Source of the DNA: Candidatus Shapirobacteria bacterium
GTDB lineage: Bacteria > Patescibacteriota > Microgenomatia > UBA12405
Assembly (NCBI GenBank): GCA_041649835.1
Contig: JBAZML010000002.1
Coordinates: 3,318 to 67,317, forward strand
Direction of reading: 5' to 3'
Length of the DNA stretch: 64,000 nt
The notes below the pieces were generated by a model. The model did no database searches, had not been told where the DNA came from, and was given only the letters and a program-made list of their open reading frames with translations. Below are positions 3,011-59,090 of this stretch, piece by piece. The position numbers were made by a program, and so were the translations under genes. The number at the start of each line of letters is the position of its first letter. The stretch's first letter is position 1.

Positions 3011-3954
3011 GGCAGTATAGAATCGCGGTTCTAGGTAAATGGGAAACATACATCTCATATTTTTTGATGGGTAGTCTTCAGGGGGCGTTCCTTAATGGTG
3101 GACTCGGAATTCCTATATCTATAGAAAAGAATTCACCCAATGAAATTTGGAATCAATTAAATTTCTTTAAACCTCATGCGGTCCTCGCTCATACGATTTT
3201 TGACAGACGACCAAATATTGGAGAGCTATTCGAAGTCTTCAGGAAATATAGAAGACATGGTGGTAAGGTTTTCTATCATGCAGGAGACGCTAGAACTGAA
3301 CCCAGATATCCTAAAGCCATTAATGATATAGTAGATTATGTTCTATTGAATCATTGGCCTATGATACCTGCCTACAATGTCTGGAAGATCCCCACAATCC
3401 ACTGGCCGTATGCAGCGTTGGCCCAGGAAGAAATTGCAAAACCTTCAGCTCTATATGTTTGCGACCTAGGATTTGCTGGAAGTTTGGAAAATAATCAGCA
3501 TCACGCACCTAGGGCCAAGTTTATTCAAGCACTCAAGTCTAAAGTTTCTATTAAAATCTTTCCTACTCCAGAAACCGGTAATACAAGATTTCAAACTCCA
3601 GAATTTGCGGCTTCAGCTAAAGGCTGTCTTGGTTTTCAAATGGGGTTGAATATGCCCCTCTATCAGGATGTTCGGCCTTTTCAACTCTGTGGGGCGGGAG
3701 CCTTATATTTTCATGATAAACACCCTTCTATGGACAAATTTTTTAAAGATGGAATTCATTATGTCGGCTTTGAAAGAGATAATGTAGAAGATTTCTATAA
3801 TAAATGGACATATTATCTTAATAACCCTGAAGAGGCTAATAAAATCAGGAAAGAAGCTTTTAGGTACTGTCAGGAACATCATAGTTACAAAGAAAGAATG
3901 CGAGGAATAATAAATATACTTGAGGGTAAAGAGTATAAGCTTCACTACATTTAG
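3007..3954 (+). CDS. glycosyltransferase, CgeB-like (Glyco_trans_1_2 / DUF3880 C-terminal domain)
   Basis: C-terminal ...EEANKIRKEAFRYCQEHHSYKERM matches the CgeB-family signature (rraia..aRervlaeHTyehR); paralog of 4982..6007. Confidence 0.65.
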   Translation: MRQYRIAVLGKWETYISYFLMGSLQGAFLNGGLGIPISIEKNSPNEIWNQLNFFKPHAVLAHTIFDRRPNIGELFEVFRKYRRHGGKVFYHAGDARTEPRYPKAINDIVDYVLLNHWPMIPAYNVWKIPTIHWPYAALAQEEIAKPSALYVCDLGFAGSLENNQHHAPRAKFIQALKSKVSIKIFPTPETGNTRFQTPEFAASAKGCLGFQMGLNMPLYQDVRPFQLCGAGALYFHDKHPSMDKFFKDGIHYVGFERDNVEDFYNKWTYYLNNPEEANKIRKEAFRYCQEHHSYKERMRGIINILEGKEYKLHYI

Positions 3955-4049
3955 GTAGAACTTCGGAGACCTTTGGCTCCGACTACACACTATGCCGACT
4001 TTAAACACTTAAGACCTTACTTTTAGTCGGAAGTAAGAAAGGAAATGTT

Positions 4050-31496: not shown

Positions 31497-34400
31497 TTAT
31501 GGATTAAGAATTGATAATGCTAATCCCATAGTTCCCAGAACATACATATCATCAATCTCAAATGCATTAACTTGTTGCCCCTGCTGTTTACCGCCGGAAC
31601 TCATTGTTTGAGAAATGATGTTATTTGTTTGGGTAGCATTTTTACTCATTTCTCCGGGTAAATTTGAAGCGGCTTGAGCGGTGGCCTGTAAAGCTGCAGT
31701 ATTAGTTGCTTGTATTTGTGCTGTATTTAATCCTTTTTGTCGTTCCAGATCTGCAATTTGAGAAGTTGTCGTTAATCCAGTTAATGGAGATATTTTAGCC
31801 ATGTTATTCTGTTGTGCCTTACGTATATACTCTTCTGTAGATATACCACTTTTTACTGTATGCCCGGAACCATAGTCTGGGTTGTAAGACGTTTCTGCCA
31901 TAAGGGTTTTTCCAGTAGTAGGATCATAATATGCAATAGCTCCATGTCCTAGGCCCACAATAGAGTCCCCAGGCTTAATGTCTGATGCTCCATACTGCCC
32001 AGATTTTAAAAGAGTTCCAGCGTTTTTTCTAAGAAGTTCAGCAGAACCCCCGGTTGTTAGGTCTTTATATTTGGCCATTTGTTCAGGAGATAGCTGACCC
32101 GCCATAGAATCTAGTAAAGTTCTATACCCATAATTTACTAAACCAGTGCAGTCTATTTTCTTCGTTACGTTAGGATCTACTCCATGTCCACCGCCATATT
32201 CATAACCAAAGTTTTTAGAAGCATATTGTATTCCATTAAACATTGCGGTTAGAGGATCAGTACCTAGTTGAGGTCCTGTAGATTTAACACTAGGACCTCC
32301 GTATGTTTCCATTAAAAACTTTTTTGTTTCCATTGGGAGTTTACTTCTATCCATAGGGGCATTTGCTCCACCTAAAGCTCTATCTAATTTACCCTCTCCC
32401 CAATTATAAGCAGCCAGTGCTTTTTCTTTATCTCCTCCATATTTCTTCAATAGCCCAGCATAATAACTAACTCCTTTGTTAATATTTTGTTCCGGGTCAT
32501 ATGCGTTTATATTACCCGCTGTACCGGGCATAAGTTGCATAAGACCCATTGCACCTTTTGGAGAAGTTACACTAGGGTTCCAATTTGATTCTGTTTGAAT
32601 TAGTCTAGCTATATCTGCTGGGGTTATATCAGTTCTACCTGTAGCTTTAATAGCCTGATCTATAAATGGTGCATATGCTGGGTTTCTTATTATATCTGAT
32701 GCATTTGCAGGGATAGATGGTGTTCCAATCCCACCTACAATTCCACTACCCCCGCTTATAGCACCTACTGTTTGCGGAGAATTACCGCCGCCCAAAGTAT
32801 TAGTTACTTTTCCTAATACTCCCTTCCATATCTCATTTAACCATCCTACAACATCACTTCCAATACCTAAATACTTGTCTCTATTTTTATCATCGAATTT
32901 GTTTAGGTCTTTGGTCTGAACCAAATTGGCTTTGACTATGGCCTCATACATTGCATTTTCTGCACTTCCGGCTGAAGGAGATTCGCCCTTTTTTATATCT
33001 TCTTCAATCATATCTCCAACGTTTTTACCGATCCAGCCACCTATAAAGCCACCAATCATTTCTCCAGCAAAAACCCCGGCAGCAGCCCCAGCAGGGCCGC
33101 CTAGTAAAAAACCAAGACCGCCGCCAATGAGAGCCCCCGCGCCTTGCCCAGCAAAAGAACCGCCAACTGCTCCTGCAGTACCACCAACACCTTGTCCCTG
33201 AGCTGCAGCAAGTCCACCACTTAATAGAGCGCTTCCACCTCTAGTAGTAAATAACTTTTTACCGAGATTTAAACCTCCTTTTGCAATTGAACCGATTTTA
33301 CCTTTTAAATAGTCTAAACCTAAATATGAACCAATAAGAGCCGCTATATCACCAAAGTCGATTCCTCCGTCTTCTCCTGGAGGCTGGGCGCCAACAGAAC
33401 CAACCTGATTACCAAAAATTCCTTTTTTGAACTTAGCCTTTAATGTTGCTTTTGTTCTAGCATTTCTTTCGTTTTTGGCTTGTTGGGCTTCTCTATCTTT
33501 AGCCTCACGTTTTTTAATCTTTTTTAATTGATTATGTAATCTAGCTTCATCTCTTATGGAGGTATACTTAGCTAAAATAGAGTCCTTCATAGACTTTACA
33601 AAACTAAATATCTTATCTTTAAGAGACTTGTTACCTTTACCAAAAGTCTCAGCTAGGGCCTTTAAACCTCCCTTAAGTTTGCTAGCGTATTCTGAAATCG
33701 TTTTTGCTAATTTTGATTCTCCAAGTTTTTCGAAAAGGGCTTTAATTTTTTGAAATCTTTCAGAGTTGACAATACCTAAGAACTTTTCTTTAAAGAGGTC
33801 TATTTTATCTAAAACTTTAGATTTAAAATTTTTACTAAGAAACCCAGAAACCATAACAACATCTTTTATATAACCTAAAAACTTTCCAAATAGTTTAAAA
33901 TATAGAGGAAATCTAAAGAACTTACTCATGAAAAATTTTATCGGCCTAGTCATAGCAACTGCCTGTTCTCTACTAAATCCTCCGTATTTGGTTAAAACTG
34001 TTCTAGCGGCGAATCTTATTAGAAAAAACTTTATCCACCAACTAAAAATCTTTTTAACCCAACCAAAAAGTCCCTTGGCTGCATCCCACACAGCTCCTAA
34101 CTTATCTCCTAAAATTTCATGAAAATCATTCTTAACCAATTCTATCATTGAAGCAAACTTAGTTTTAATAAACTCTAAAGCTTTACCGAACACATTATAC
34201 ATAGCCACTCTAGCTGTACCAAAAACGTCGCTTTTTACTTTTCCTATAGTTTTACTAACCATTTTTTTGTATAAAGATCTACCTACATAAACCCCGATAC
34301 CAGTAGCAACAGCACCAACAAGAGTAACACCTAGATATTTTAGAAAGGATCTCTCTTGCTTTATTTTTTTGGTATAATAGACTTTTTGACTACCAGAAAT

Positions 34401-34550
34401 AGCGTTTTGTAGTTTTAGTAGATCTTTAGACGAAATTGTAGCAGGTAAAGATCCGGCTGCGATCTTTACATTTACTGCGTCAGCGGCCTTATTTGAAACC
34501 CGAACTGGAACAAGAAGGTTTCGATTTTTCACTGCGTCGACAATTGGCAT
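31497..34550 (-). CDS. tail tape-measure protein with lytic transglycosylase (SLT) and NlpC/P60 peptidase domains
   Basis: Long K-rich helical N-half, Gly-zipper segment; IQTESNWNP...GAMGLMQLMPGTAG (SLT motif); KIDCTGLVNYGY (NlpC/P60 Cys box). Confidence 0.65.
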   Translation of the reverse strand: MPIVDAVKNRNLLVPVRVSNKAADAVNVKIAAGSLPATISSKDLLKLQNAISGSQKVYYTKKIKQERSFLKYLGVTLVGAVATGIGVYVGRSLYKKMVSKTIGKVKSDVFGTARVAMYNVFGKALEFIKTKFASMIELVKNDFHEILGDKLGAVWDAAKGLFGWVKKIFSWWIKFFLIRFAARTVLTKYGGFSREQAVAMTRPIKFFMSKFFRFPLYFKLFGKFLGYIKDVVMVSGFLSKNFKSKVLDKIDLFKEKFLGIVNSERFQKIKALFEKLGESKLAKTISEYASKLKGGLKALAETFGKGNKSLKDKIFSFVKSMKDSILAKYTSIRDEARLHNQLKKIKKREAKDREAQQAKNERNARTKATLKAKFKKGIFGNQVGSVGAQPPGEDGGIDFGDIAALIGSYLGLDYLKGKIGSIAKGGLNLGKKLFTTRGGSALLSGGLAAAQGQGVGGTAGAVGGSFAGQGAGALIGGGLGFLLGGPAGAAAGVFAGEMIGGFIGGWIGKNVGDMIEEDIKKGESPSAGSAENAMYEAIVKANLVQTKDLNKFDDKNRDKYLGIGSDVVGWLNEIWKGVLGKVTNTLGGGNSPQTVGAISGGSGIVGGIGTPSIPANASDIIRNPAYAPFIDQAIKATGRTDITPADIARLIQTESNWNPSVTSPKGAMGLMQLMPGTAGNINAYDPEQNINKGVSYYAGLLKKYGGDKEKALAAYNWGEGKLDRALGGANAPMDRSKLPMETKKFLMETYGGPSVKSTGPQLGTDPLTAMFNGIQYASKNFGYEYGGGHGVDPNVTKKIDCTGLVNYGYRTLLDSMAGQLSPEQMAKYKDLTTGGSAELLRKNAGTLLKSGQYGASDIKPGDSIVGLGHGAIAYYDPTTGKTLMAETSYNPDYGSGHTVKSGISTEEYIRKAQQNNMAKISPLTGLTTTSQIADLERQKGLNTAQIQATNTAALQATAQAASNLPGEMSKNATQTNNIISQTMSSGGKQQGQQVNAFEIDDMYVLGTMGLALSILNP

Positions 34551-34576
34551 TTTAGTTATAACTCCAAAAATAAAAA

Positions 34577-34613
34577 GGTCTTAAGGATATTTATACAATA
34601 TCTCCTTAAGACC
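34577..34613 (-). promoter_or_regulatory. perfect 11-bp inverted repeat whose loop carries a TATAAATA late-promoter motif, ~38 nt upstream of tape-measure ATG
   Basis: ggtcttaagga-N15-tccttaagacc; loop tatttatacaatatc = TATAAATA on minus strand at 34588-34595. Confidence 0.5.
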
Positions 34614-34649
34614 CGAAGATCCGTTCCTTTTAAAGGAAGCGGAGGAAAA

Positions 34650-34856
34650 TTATTGAGCTGTTTTTATGTTACTTTGTGCTTGTATTTCCTCTTTAAGCTG
34701 TTTGATTACGAGATTTAGAAAAGCCTCTCTTTCAAAGTCGCTCAGCATTGCACTTTCGGTTAGTGAAATTCCGGCGTATTTACTCAAATAATATTGTTCT
34801 TCTACCAATGCCTCTATCGTTGCACCTTCCGTAACGATAGATTTTAGAATAAAAAA
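34650..34856 (-). other. -1 frame extension of tail assembly chaperone (programmed frameshift product, gpGT-like)
   Basis: Slippery heptamer T_TTT_TTA (plus strand 34850-34856 taaaaaa) at the last codons of ORF 34844..35572; -1 frame stays open for ~66 codons to the TAA at 34650-34652. Confidence 0.5.
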
Positions 34857-35572
34857 CTTTCTAAAGATATGTTGATCTCTTCCTCAGATTTGCACCCATC
34901 GCACTTCATCTTATACTTAAATTCAACTCCAAAATTAAGATTATCGAACCAATCTCTAATCTTTTCATAAAGTCCTTCGGGAATCATATTAACGAATTCA
35001 TATGCATCTTCAGCAGTTGGTACTGATTCTCCATCTGGGGTTACTATCTTTTTAATACATAGCGCGTGCGACCATAAGGCCTGATCAATCATTCTCTGTT
35101 GATATTCAAGATCTTTATTTACTTTGGTTGCTGCAACCTTCTGAACTCCACGAGTTAAAATTTGCAATTCAACCGCAATATTATCATCTAATTTTACAGA
35201 AGTATCATATTTTCCTAGCTTTTTTGTATGTAACTTACTAAGATCGATACTTTGCATTGTTTGTGAAGAACACTTGGGACAATTATATACAAATTTGTAA
35301 AGATTGCCTTTAGTTCTCCGTCTTATAGCTACAAGTAAAAAGAACCGATCTTCTAGGTATAACTCGTCAATGTTAAAACCTTCATCTACAACAGATCCAA
35401 CAATTAGATCATCTAAAGCCGTTTCTGAATCATCATCCCCAGTACCGTAGGACAAAAGCCTTTTAAGTTGAAAAGTGTTAAACGGTTTTATTTTAACTTT
35501 CTTTCCAGATCCAGGTAAAGTTTCAGAAAACTCATAACAATTTAAATACTTTTGGACATTTTCTAATGACAC
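34844..35572 (-). CDS. tail assembly chaperone (gpG-like), zinc-ribbon containing
   Basis: Position between tube and tape-measure genes; CPKCSS...CDGC; slippery site at its 3' end. Confidence 0.5.
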   Translation of the reverse strand: MSLENVQKYLNCYEFSETLPGSGKKVKIKPFNTFQLKRLLSYGTGDDDSETALDDLIVGSVVDEGFNIDELYLEDRFFLLVAIRRRTKGNLYKFVYNCPKCSSQTMQSIDLSKLHTKKLGKYDTSVKLDDNIAVELQILTRGVQKVAATKVNKDLEYQQRMIDQALWSHALCIKKIVTPDGESVPTAEDAYEFVNMIPEGLYEKIRDWFDNLNFGVEFKYKMKCDGCKSEEEINISLESFLF

Positions 35573-35638
35573 AATCTATTTCTCCTTAGTCTATTCTAAC
35601 ATAAAAATTATATCATACTACTTAATATTGTAAACTAT

Positions 35639-36169
35639 TTACACATAAGTGAAGTATGTATAGCTGAAAGTAACATCAAAGGTAGCAAAATCAGTGGTCT
35701 GACTCATATCCAATTGCAGATCGCCAACTTCTGACGGCCATGCAAATTGAAGATTATATACTAGAGAAGTAGTAAAAGTCTTCGGATTTAATAAATAGAG
35801 ACTTTGTTCTCTAAAATATTCACTAGGCATTGCGTGTTTATTTGTCTTAGGATTTAAAATAAAATCCTGCCAAGCTAAAAATGCTTTTCTAATATAAGCA
35901 TTTACGTCTACATTAAATGTACACGTTAGATTATTATAAGTCCTCTTTCCTGCTGTCTTATAATCGAAACCTTGCCACTGAGTTATGTTCTCATCAATTG
36001 TGCTGGACGGTAGGTTAGCAGTCTTTACCAAGAACCTTGCGTTCGGAACCAAAGAAATTTCGGCAGGAAAGTTAGGTTCAAAATAAAATAGATAAGCTCT
36101 TGCCCCAGTTTCAAAATTACTTTTAAAAGCGTCAATGTTAAGCTCATTAGCATTAGGTGTATTTGCCAT
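35639..36169 (-). CDS. tail tube protein, T4 gp19-like
   Basis: C-terminal FAWPSEVGDLQLDMSQTTDFATFDVTFSYTYF matches T4 gp19 LWPTNVGELQLDWDSNNEIQTFEVTLALDYW. Confidence 0.75.
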   Translation of the reverse strand: MANTPNANELNIDAFKSNFETGARAYLFYFEPNFPAEISLVPNARFLVKTANLPSSTIDENITQWQGFDYKTAGKRTYNNLTCTFNVDVNAYIRKAFLAWQDFILNPKTNKHAMPSEYFREQSLYLLNPKTFTTSLVYNLQFAWPSEVGDLQLDMSQTTDFATFDVTFSYTYFTYV

Positions 36170-57527: not shown

Positions 57528-59090
57528 CTAATATCCACCACTTTGCTGTTGTTCAAGTTTTGGATCAGGTCTGAATCCTAGTTTTATGTCTTCAGCAAAC
57601 GAGGCAGCATTCGCCTTAATATCATTTTCGTCCCATTCTAAATATTTTCTCATTAAGAAGGACTTTCCCATTTCTGGCAAATTTGCGAGTGTGAGATAAT
57701 TATTGAACTTTACTTCTCTCATTATTTGTTCTTGCTTGTCCTTATAGAAAGAAGGCTGAATCATCTTAATGGCTATATTGTCTCTAGTTAATTCGTATTC
57801 AGCTTTAAGACCCTTGAATTCTAGATGAAGTAAAAATAGATTAAGCCACTCATTACAAAAACGATTTTGCTGCCGAGAAAGAAATGTCGCCCATTTGATC
57901 TCATCTCTGCTAATTTCTCCAGCCGGGCTTCTTGAAAATAAAATCTCTGACTCTCTATCACTTTGCATAGCAGAAACCCTAGACATAGGATATTTAAGAG
58001 ACTGATACAGCTTTCTTTGAAAGTACTTAATATCTGAGAGTTCTGTAAACCCAGCTGTAGAAGATCCACCAACAGTAGAAATATCTGAACCTCTTCCCTC
58101 GCTCGACGTACTAAGAAAAAAATTGTCCTGTATAGATAAAACATCAGGATTTTGAGTTAATCTACCAGTACTTGGATCATAACTCTGTTTCTTCATCATA
58201 GAAGACTTTACTTTTTCAACATATTTCATGGCCTTATCTCTGGGCATATTTCCTACGTCTACCTTAAATACTAGTCTCTCGGGGGCCCTCACAATTCGGT
58301 AAATAATGATAGAAGTTTCAAGTAGTTTCAGTGTATTATACGGAACTTTTACCTTTTCCAAATACCCAAAAATCTCAGATTTAAGTCTTCCATAAATACC
58401 ATAGTCTACAAGTCCTATTTGGGCTGGTTCAAATTCAATAACATCTTTTTCTGATGGATTTACTTTTTTACCGGAATCTGGATTAAGATATTGTCTAAAC
58501 TTCTTTATTTTACCTGTTATATGATCGTATTCAAAATCCATAGTTTCTGACGGAAGTTTCTTAATTCCGATAATTCCGTTTTTTTGGTTCTTTTCATCTA
58601 TTATTCTTTCATAGTAAAATCTACCATCAATAAAATAGCTTCTAAAATAATCATAACAGTTTTCATGGAGTTTAAGTTTATTATAGAATAAATCGTCGAA
58701 TTCCTCTTGAAGTTTATCTATAATATTCTTATTCTTTTTAAGATCTTCCTCTTGAATATCGAGCACTAAAACTTTGCCTTCTAGATCTTCTTGGGTAGAT
58801 TCTATACAAGCATCTTCAATAACGTCTGCGATTTCTGGCATTTCAGCGATGTTTCTATAGTTTAAAATTTTTGCTCTTTCATTATCGAAAGTTTTATTTA
58901 TGTAGTGGGCGTAGAACAAATTAAAACTTGAAGTTGACAAAGCCGAAAATTGTGGTAGAAACTCTAACCCCTCACCTGACATATTCTTGGCAATTTTCGG
59001 TGTTAGCGTAGTTCCGCCCTTGTTTTTAAAGGCTGCTATTGACTCATCCAACTTACTTACATAATTTTTTACGCCAGATAATATTCCCAT
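57528..59090 (-). CDS. portal protein (gp20-like)
   Basis: 520 aa, gene order terminase..portal..protease..scaffold..capsid as in T4. Confidence 0.6.
   Translation of the reverse strand: MGILSGVKNYVSKLDESIAAFKNKGGTTLTPKIAKNMSGEGLEFLPQFSALSTSSFNLFYAHYINKTFDNERAKILNYRNIAEMPEIADVIEDACIESTQEDLEGKVLVLDIQEEDLKKNKNIIDKLQEEFDDLFYNKLKLHENCYDYFRSYFIDGRFYYERIIDEKNQKNGIIGIKKLPSETMDFEYDHITGKIKKFRQYLNPDSGKKVNPSEKDVIEFEPAQIGLVDYGIYGRLKSEIFGYLEKVKVPYNTLKLLETSIIIYRIVRAPERLVFKVDVGNMPRDKAMKYVEKVKSSMMKKQSYDPSTGRLTQNPDVLSIQDNFFLSTSSEGRGSDISTVGGSSTAGFTELSDIKYFQRKLYQSLKYPMSRVSAMQSDRESEILFSRSPAGEISRDEIKWATFLSRQQNRFCNEWLNLFLLHLEFKGLKAEYELTRDNIAIKMIQPSFYKDKQEQIMREVKFNNYLTLANLPEMGKSFLMRKYLEWDENDIKANAASFAEDIKLGFRPDPKLEQQQSGGY

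Follow-up and report, generated by a model that had tools for sequence, protein, structure and literature searches.

The locus examined here raises the question of whether a phage gene ends at its stop codon or is read beyond it by ribosomes that change frame. In a stretch of 64,000 nucleotides (nt) of DNA filed under Candidatus Shapirobacteria bacterium (GenBank assembly GCA_041649835.1, contig JBAZML010000002.1, positions 3,318 to 67,317, forward strand; hereafter the window), an open reading frame (ORF) of 242 amino acids (aa), related to the baseplate hub assembly protein gp26 of phage T4, lies between a tail tube gene and a tape-measure-like gene, and between its stop codon and the tape-measure gene an overlapping frame stays open. 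The last codons of the ORF hold the heptamer U_UUU_UUA, at which a shift by one nucleotide backward would carry ribosomes into that frame. We argue that this single gene probably gives rise to both a gp26-like and a gp51-like product by way of a conserved -1 slip, as a chaperone pair comparable to the G/GT proteins of long-tailed phages. The frameshift taken by itself is, on comparative sequence evidence, very probably real and used.

A candidate slippery site at the end of a gp26-like gene

The gene and the frame that overlaps it consist of three features:

34844..35572, minus strand: zero-frame ORF, 242 aa, the gp26-like short form, 27.8 kDa; start GTG at 35572, preceded 9 nt upstream by AAGGAG at 35587-35582; stop TAA at 34846-34844
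34850..34856 (34856..34850 in coding direction), minus strand: slippery heptamer U_UUU_UUA, in the register X_XXY_YYZ
34650..34850, minus strand: -1 frame extension of 66 codons (ILKSIV...IKTAQ), stop TAA at 34652-34650

The 242-aa ORF ends in ...INISLESFLF*, its last codons reading agT TTT TTA ttc taa, with a single codon (UUC) between the heptamer and the UAA stop. A first-pass annotation of this DNA had proposed a -1 frameshift here; the heptamer's position, its register and its plus-strand coordinates (TAAAAAA at 34850-34856) are exact to the base. A TGA at 34886..34884 closes the -1 frame upstream, after which it stays open from 34883 to 34653; because of this TGA, the two frames can be joined only within a stretch of about 12 codons, which includes the heptamer. 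Translation of 34856..34650 in the -1 frame returns the peptide read in the first pass, FFILKSIVTEGATIEALVEEQYY...IKTAQ*, down to the TAA at 34652-34650. The junction alone has to be corrected, from FFILKS to ...ESFL|ILKSIV..., if the slip follows decoding of UUA. The long form would then comprise 307 aa and 35.1 kDa, with its first 241 residues common to both forms; the first pass had predicted products of about 27 and 35 kDa. The predicted tryptic peptides are SEEEINISLESFLILK for the long-form junction and SEEEINISLESFLF for the short form.

The pattern within the window is not statistically decisive on its own, and it is the comparative data that decide. Among 80 long ORFs in the window, 16 continue in the -1 frame for 50 codons or more, such extensions being common because the next gene overlaps, and only three of these also have a heptamer in the overlap. 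The only other combination of heptamer and long extension on the minus strand, at 57821-58156, was rejected as spurious, being an alternative-frame ORF inside a 520-aa gene (57528-59090).

Conservation of the site and its register

Relatives were assembled from several sources. A scan of the IMG/VR database with the single protein found no close relatives, an alignment-guided scan of the same database yielded 80 loci, and from a protein search came 33 homologues, 239-290 aa long, every one of them ending in ...FLF, ...FFF or ...NFFS. The comparison set used below consists of 68 non-redundant related loci from IMG/VR, metagenomes, cyanophages and the pelagiphage HTVC008M. The closest relatives, L084 and L086, are 91% and 74% identical to the window at the protein level, and on both contigs gene callers left the same stretch of about 300 nt before the tape-measure gene uncalled.

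An in-frame T_TTT_TTN is present in all 68 loci, placed either directly before the stop (28 loci) or one codon before it (40 loci). The 3'-most heptamer is TTTTTTC in 38 loci, TTTTTTT in 22, TTTTTTA in 7 and TTTTTTG in 1. The -1 extension runs for 56-73 codons throughout, and the +1 frame is mostly closed within 1-5 codons. The first-pass annotation had staked its proposal on the -1 frame being open in related phage genomes; in this comparison the heptamer, its register, its position and the length of the extension are all retained. The isolates S-CAM3, Sf-CH3, C48C1, HTVC008M and 121Q carry the same arrangement of heptamer and -1 extension.

Some loci have unusual 3' ends. Two contigs from IMG/VR sample 3300000557 (L062, 3197-3929; L068, 3073-3820) have a copy of the gene cut short by an in-frame stop some 100 nt ahead of where it should end, and retain a run of seven T and the sequence that follows it about 100 nt downstream of that stop; these broken copies are probably assembly errors or pseudogenes. 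In Streptococcus phage vB_SagM-GXN1 (L091, ~3641-4006) the gp26-like ORF ends in ...PEFFRPRFD*, without a T-run and with the -1 frame closed. In its +1 frame no stop occurs over 33 codons upstream and 89 downstream, and the peptide read there has an end that resembles the extension, ...SISDFHYHYNRFV...KEAEKRKEE. Recoding by +1 or -2 could account for this locus, as could a sequencing error.

Relation of the two predicted products to T4 gp26 and gp51

The 242-aa protein matches the Pfam family PF12322 (T4_baseplate) with an expect value (E) of 1.3e-22 (81 bits against a cut-off of 24.5; residues 13-235 on profile positions 4-211 of 219), its sole above-threshold Pfam match, and phrog_150 ('baseplate hub') with E 1.8e-25. 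The extension matches phrog_634 ('baseplate hub assembly catalyst') weakly, with E 3.4e-4, and this is the family matched by residues 147-246 of T4 gp51 (E 1e-23). T4 gp26 and gp51 both match PF12322 and phrog_150, and the extent of the matches separates short forms from long ones: along the 282 positions of phrog_150, the unshifted product covers 8-226 and T4 gp26 covers 14-235, and the fused product covers 8-281 and T4 gp51 covers 13-280.

Profile comparison gives the same correspondence. With an alignment of T4 gp51 and homologues of at least 240 aa (88 of 92 sequences, as reported by hhalign), the 68 fused products align end to end (98.7%, E 4.4e-16, 241 columns). In this alignment the -1 extension falls on gp51 residues ~200-249, with its conserved M.DFEREAY.NLL.KD.KEE opposite MIPAERGFVLKLIEKDKQ. 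T4 gp26 aligns with the profile of the fused products at 96% (E 4e-9) and with gp51 at 97.5%; its terminus, ...EFFELL*, falls at the exact position of the slip, and gp51 runs on for 46 residues past ...DVFKLL. Both families keep two cysteine pairs. In the short form the four invariant cysteines are C98, C101, C224 and C227 (34 sequences), arranged CxxC ... CxxC, and in the gp51 family they are C85, C88, C185 and C186, with CC as the second pair. PF28602 appears as a second family in precomputed annotations of gp51 homologues. On these sequence comparisons, the unshifted product corresponds to T4 gp26 and the predicted frameshifted product to T4 gp51.

AlphaFold models are consistent with this assignment. 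The fused product of the window is predicted with a mean local confidence (predicted local distance difference test, pLDDT) of 84, with blocks of 90-98 over most of the shared domain, and the gp51 family with a pLDDT of 92 and a predicted template modelling score (pTM) of 0.87. In both models the chain runs through the same elements in turn: a beta-hairpin at the N-terminus, then helices, then beta-hairpins that bear the first pair of cysteines; after a helical insert comes another hairpin, which bears the second pair, and last a helical C-terminal tail, predicted at residues 244-306 of the fused product, which has it only by virtue of the -1 shift, and 196-249 of gp51. The junction (residues 242-256) is modelled with low confidence, the extension lacking alignment depth in that run. 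Foldseek against BFVD returned many proteins labelled 'baseplate hub' or 'hub assembly' that belong to large myoviruses, including SP-15, ACP17, VH7D, CP220, phiRSL1 and Ackermannviridae; the lowest E was 8e-14.

T4 keeps gene 26 (208 aa) apart from gene 51 (249 aa); the two are transcribed divergently, and gene 51 stands at the head of a 51-27-28-29-48-54 cluster. T4 gene 26 (L088, 3803-4090) is also annotated with a second product of 95 aa, 26', from an internal in-frame start; T4, too, makes more than one protein from gene 26, by a different route than frameshifting.

Coding constraint on the extension

Aligned with one another, the 68 extensions share the consensus LI.L....SL..I.EEQY.L.....IS..ES..M.DFEREAY.NLL.KD.KEE, which starts at the first residue past the slip. 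Across 71 moderately diverged pairs, differences at codon positions 1, 2 and 3 of the -1 frame number 1077, 585 and 1918, and single-nucleotide codon changes comprise 1082 synonymous versus 497 non-synonymous ones, a pattern of purifying selection on the extension in the -1 frame.

A coding frame of this kind could belong to an independent small gene with its own start. The window does offer a candidate: the first start codon in the -1 frame, a TTG at 34808, 14 codons past the heptamer, would open a 52-aa ORF (34650-34808) that is present in the ORF list and has an AGAGG just upstream. That AGAGG, however, is only 2 nt from the TTG and lies within the 3' arm of the hairpin described below, and the TTG is not conserved in relatives, L084 having CTC in its place. 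The first ATG, GTG or TTG in the -1 frame varies in position among the loci, from points ahead of the slip site to one 48 codons beyond it; it lies at least 10 codons downstream in 36 of the 68 and is missing in two, and the conservation of the protein begins at the slip site, upstream of most candidate starts. A phmmer search with the 66-aa extension against 1.84 billion representative proteins recovered only 38 mini-ORFs of 41-96 aa with ragged N-termini, which is what gene callers yield when they pick opportunistic internal starts. An independent gene would also give the heptamer no reason to be locked in register and present in every locus, and in T4 the homologous segment is covalently joined to a gp26-like domain. 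We therefore consider an independent gene improbable.

Annotated gp51 genes in cyanophages, a pelagiphage and 121Q

Existing phage records also give the appearance of a separate gene. A tblastn search with the fused product matched cyanophages in two pieces, lying under annotated 'baseplate hub' and 'baseplate hub assembly catalyst' genes. In S-CAM3, Sf-CH3 and C48C1 (Kyanoviridae; L001, L002 and L003) and in HTVC008M (L089), 'gp51' is annotated as a mini-gene of 34-45 codons that begins 50-75 nt past the gp26 stop, always in the -1 frame, at an internal ATG or TTG. These records thus present a separate gene and a gap, unlike the fused reading proposed for the window, over an arrangement that is identical to that of the window: a heptamer closes gp26 (tcT TTT TTC gcg tag in S-CAM3, tcT TTT TTC ggg taa in Sf-CH3, gaT TTT TTT taa in C48C1 and agT TTT TTT taa in HTVC008M) and a homologous open -1 extension of 59-63 codons follows. 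The annotated mini-genes are truncated, given that both homology and the open frame reach back to the T_TTT_TTY heptamer. Ribosomal slippage is annotated in none of the GenBank records inspected.

Escherichia phage 121Q (L090, 3624-3848) presents a variant of this arrangement. Its heptamer lies one codon before the stop (caT TTT TTC gag taa). The stop also overlaps an ATG (TAATG), at which gp595 begins, a -1 frame gene annotated as a 'hypothetical protein' of 69 aa. Taken alone this overlap suits a separate gene; 121Q could use either frameshifting or coupled reinitiation.

Slippage of the polymerase, sequencing error and chance

A different route to the long form would be transcriptional slippage, in which RNA polymerase adds one U in the T-run. 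Bacterial RNA polymerases slip at runs of 8-10 T. The run is six T long in 20 of the 68 loci, seven in 9, eight in 16, nine in 22 and ten in 1, so that 39 relatives have runs of the length concerned. Yet the window itself has six T, like 19 other loci, and nine more have seven, which is too short for efficient slippage by the polymerase. Moreover, all 20 six-T runs and all nine seven-T runs start at codon position 3, the sole register that gives X_XXY_YYZ, and this register is relevant to the re-pairing of transfer RNAs and not to the polymerase. We judge transcriptional slippage to be as improbable as an independent gene in accounting for the arrangement, and it may add to the amount of the long form in relatives with runs of nine or ten T.

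Less probable again is a homopolymer error in sequencing or assembly that hides a single 307-aa ORF. Homopolymers are error-prone, and the IMG/VR contigs L062 and L068 do carry broken copies, but the same -1 shift would be needed in 68 independent loci from varied samples and technologies, finished isolate genomes among them, and the zero-frame stop always lies 0-1 codon past the run, whose lengths of 6 to 10 never restore the frame. Mere chance, by which an AT-rich sequence (GC content 34.7%, with long -1 extensions on the 16 of 80 window ORFs noted above) would have placed a T-run near a stop before a non-coding spacer at 34650-34843, can be dismissed, because those long extensions are overlapping next genes and this one is conserved as protein in distant phages, shows third-position bias and is homologous to the C-terminus of gp51.

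A hairpin downstream of the site

A downstream RNA structure had been suggested as a stimulator of frameshifting, and folding of the region yielded one:

34813..34841, minus strand: 9-bp hairpin (UCUAUCGUU...AACGAUAGA), candidate frameshift stimulator, beginning 8 nt past the heptamer

A 50-nt stretch containing the hairpin folds at -10.7 kcal/mol (z -2.5), exceeding the stability of all control stretches from the same gene. The whole 110 nt downstream of the heptamer is unremarkable (z -0.75), and the local hairpin alone stands out. L084 retains it with one compensatory change, U-A to A-U, at two synonymous third positions, and L086 has a different hairpin in the same place in another register.

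Neighbouring genes

The gene is flanked as follows, in agreement with the geometry that the first-pass annotation had likened to that of G/GT genes:

35639..36169, minus strand: tail tube protein, T4 gp19-like, 176 aa (PF06841, E 5e-7; phrog_45, E 4.7e-36), upstream neighbour
31497..34550, minus strand: tape-measure-like protein, 1017 aa, in the position of T4 gp29 (phrog_167, E 2.5e-5), downstream neighbour

The tape-measure-like protein has an SLT lytic transglycosylase domain (PF01464, E 2.8e-24). The order of genes is that of a T4-like tail module, with sheath, tube, the gp26-like gene and the gp29-like SLT protein, followed after the tape-measure gene by tube-cap-like, wedge-subunit-like, tail-protein (phrog_350) and gp5-like genes. 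A blastn search with 7 kb against 50,697 phage genomes found no match, and the sheath protein is only about 26% identical to that of any isolate, which together indicate an uncultured, deeply branching T4-like myovirus.

The spacers on either side of the gene have features of their own. In the 99-nt spacer at 34551-34649, between the stop of the -1 extension and the ATG of the tape-measure gene, a hairpin on the minus strand (GGGUCUUAAGGAGA...UCCUUAAGACC, 34614..34576) is followed by a U-run at 34575..34563, so that the two together occupy 34563-34614; the entire spacer folds at -29.9 kcal/mol (z -3.6). The hairpin is kept in the two closest relatives, with a compensatory change from U-A to C-G in L084. 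Hairpin and U-run look like an intrinsic terminator or an attenuator between the chaperone and tape-measure genes. A consensus terminator scanner made no call on this hairpin, its bulged and interrupted stem presumably being unlike the simple stem-loop of the scanner's model. On the other side, where 66 nt separate the tube gene from the gp26-like gene, there is a near-consensus sigma-70-type promoter-like site on the minus strand (35607-35634; TTTACA-16 nt-TATAAT, 11 of 12 matches, with TG). At the same boundary L084 (8345-9997) and L086 (8344-9999) have an extra ORF of 550-551 aa (Pfam DUF7487), which may be a mobile or accessory insertion; the window has no such ORF, only the 66 nt.

Proposed mechanism and its meaning

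We propose that on this single late tail gene most ribosomes would halt at the UAA at 34846-34844 and release the 242-aa form, the counterpart of T4 gp26, and that a minority would slip by -1 on U_UUU_UUA (34856-34850) and read 66 further codons to make the 307-aa form. The stop one codon downstream and the hairpin 8 nt downstream may aid the slip, the efficiency of which would set the ratio of short to long form. The helical C-terminal tail of the long form would match the C-terminal end of T4 gp51. Judged by the analogy of lambda gpG/gpGT, and by existing knowledge of T4 gp26 and gp51, both of which are required for assembly of the central hub, the pair may work as a chaperone that is non-structural or only transiently present: the domain common to both forms would hold the tape-measure and hub protein of gp29 type encoded directly downstream, and the tail of the long form would bring in whatever is assembled next, hub proteins or tube proteins. 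T4 would obtain the same pair from two diverged paralogous genes. A review of T4 lists gp26 and gp51 as 'hub assembly chaperones', states that gp51 is essential, that its function is unknown and that the particle does not contain it, and gives gp29 as both a hub component and the ruler of tail length (PMC3004832). For the two forms considered here, a chaperone role like that of G/GT is one that the analogy leads us to favour, if only slightly.

Several points weigh against this interpretation. We infer the slippage itself, its efficiency, the two products and their ratio from sequence. The direct signal between the extension and gp51 is modest when taken alone: hhalign places the extension on gp51 residues 205-252 with E 3.6e-4, a hidden Markov model of the extension run against translated T4 DNA has the gp51 C-terminus as its top match with E 0.027 in a small database, and BLASTP of T4 gp51 against the fused product is not significant. 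The gp26-like protein has no match to a Pfam tail-chaperone family at E up to 1 and none by Foldseek to a solved structure in the PDB (best E 0.088). There is therefore no demonstrable tie in sequence or fold to lambda gpG or to a solved chaperone, and the functional analogy rests on position and logic. Some of the T4 genetics cited in the review assigns gp26 to the hub, as one of its structural subunits (PMC3004832). Finally, the hairpin is not conserved across the family: z falls below -2 in only 15 of the 68 loci and stays above it in 53, some cyanophages having very strong stems (-15 to -19 kcal/mol) and most loci showing nothing, and RNAalifold found no structure common to the three closest sequences, because the hairpin of L086 is in a different register. 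The hairpin would accordingly seem to be an optional enhancer, and the one element found next to the site in every locus is the zero-frame stop, 0-1 codon further on.

Frameshifting by -1 in a tail-chaperone gene that precedes the tape measure, and its conservation, are well known as such. What appears to have gone unrecognised so far is a frameshift in the PF12322 family, the standing of T4 gp26 and gp51 as split forms of one gene, and the nature of the mini 'gp51' genes as truncated readings. We found no description of a frameshift in the gp26/gp51 family in the literature covered, which left out most subscription journals, and a prior report is possible. To our knowledge, T4 and its relatives have had no recognised counterpart of the G/GT frameshift, a textbook feature of long-tailed phages, and gp26 and gp51 have for decades been described only as 'hub assembly' factors of unknown mechanism. 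We tentatively put forward, as a broader idea that we hold with less assurance than the chaperone role itself, that T4 gp26/gp51 are the T4-lineage equivalent of lambda G/GT for gp29, that the frameshift arrangement prevails in most T4-like lineages outside Straboviridae and is perhaps ancestral, and that the mini-genes are artefacts. If this were so, the lineages concerned would include cyanophages, pelagiphages, 121Q-like jumbo phages and many uncultured groups, T4 would have resolved an ancestral frameshifted gene into two paralogous genes, and the 'gp51' mini-genes of 34-45 aa in databases would be annotation artefacts of unrecognised recoding.

The proposal yields a concrete and testable hypothesis, namely that gp26 and gp51 chaperone gp29 and that recruitment is the task of the gp51 tail. 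It would also allow a systematic mis-annotation, in the form of truncated 'gp51' mini-ORFs and unexplained gaps, to be corrected in cyanophage, pelagiphage and metagenomic phage genomes, and it provides a large number of U_UUU_UUN sites, deeply diverged and locked in register, some followed by a hairpin and others not, on which -1 frameshifting in bacteria can be studied.

Comparison with known systems

The tail-assembly-chaperone frameshift of long-tailed phages was reportedly described as conserved by Xu, Hendrix and Duda in 2004 (Mol Cell 16:11), in work said to define the G/GT class. The G protein of lambda covers the tape measure, and the T portion of GT brings in the tube protein; the phage needs both proteins, and the finished tail contains neither of them. 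The locus in the window has the features of this class: it lies between tube and tape-measure genes, it has an overlapping -1 ORF without a conserved start or ribosome-binding site, an X_XXY_YYZ heptamer falls within the overlap in zero-frame register, and the arrangement is conserved with a coding-constrained -1 frame. As with lambda gpG/gpGT, the gene follows the tube gene and directly precedes the tape-measure gene, the heptamer falls on the last codons of the short ORF, the -1 extension lacks a separate start, and two proteins would share a common N-terminal domain; as in the G/GT class at large, the arrangement is conserved independently of sequence similarity. The differences from lambda are in the parts. 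The shared domain of the window has 241 aa and four invariant cysteines, whereas the whole of lambda gpG has about 140 aa; the slippery site is U_UUU_UUN, as against G_GGA_AAG in lambda; and the downstream partner is of the T4 gp29 type, at once a hub subunit and a tape measure. The label 'gpG/gpGT-type' given in the first pass accordingly holds for mechanism and logic and fails for homology, the protein belonging to the PF12322 family of T4 gp26/gp51 and not being a relative of lambda gpG.

The recoding signal has a counterpart much further afield. The gag-pol frameshift site of human immunodeficiency virus 1 is U_UUU_UUA, with a hairpin a few nucleotides downstream; the heptamer is identical to that of the window and a downstream hairpin is present in both, although the biology and the translation system are unrelated and the recoding signal alone is common to the two.

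A further close system is T4 itself. Its gp26 and gp51 are homologous to the proteins considered here, gp51 corresponding to the shifted product, including the C-terminal MIPxER...L.L.EKD.K segment, and the context is alike, with gp19-, gp29-, gp48- and gp5-like neighbours in the window. T4 uses two strongly diverged genes and no frameshift, whereas in the window a single gene would supply both proteins with identical N-terminal domains, in a ratio set by translation.

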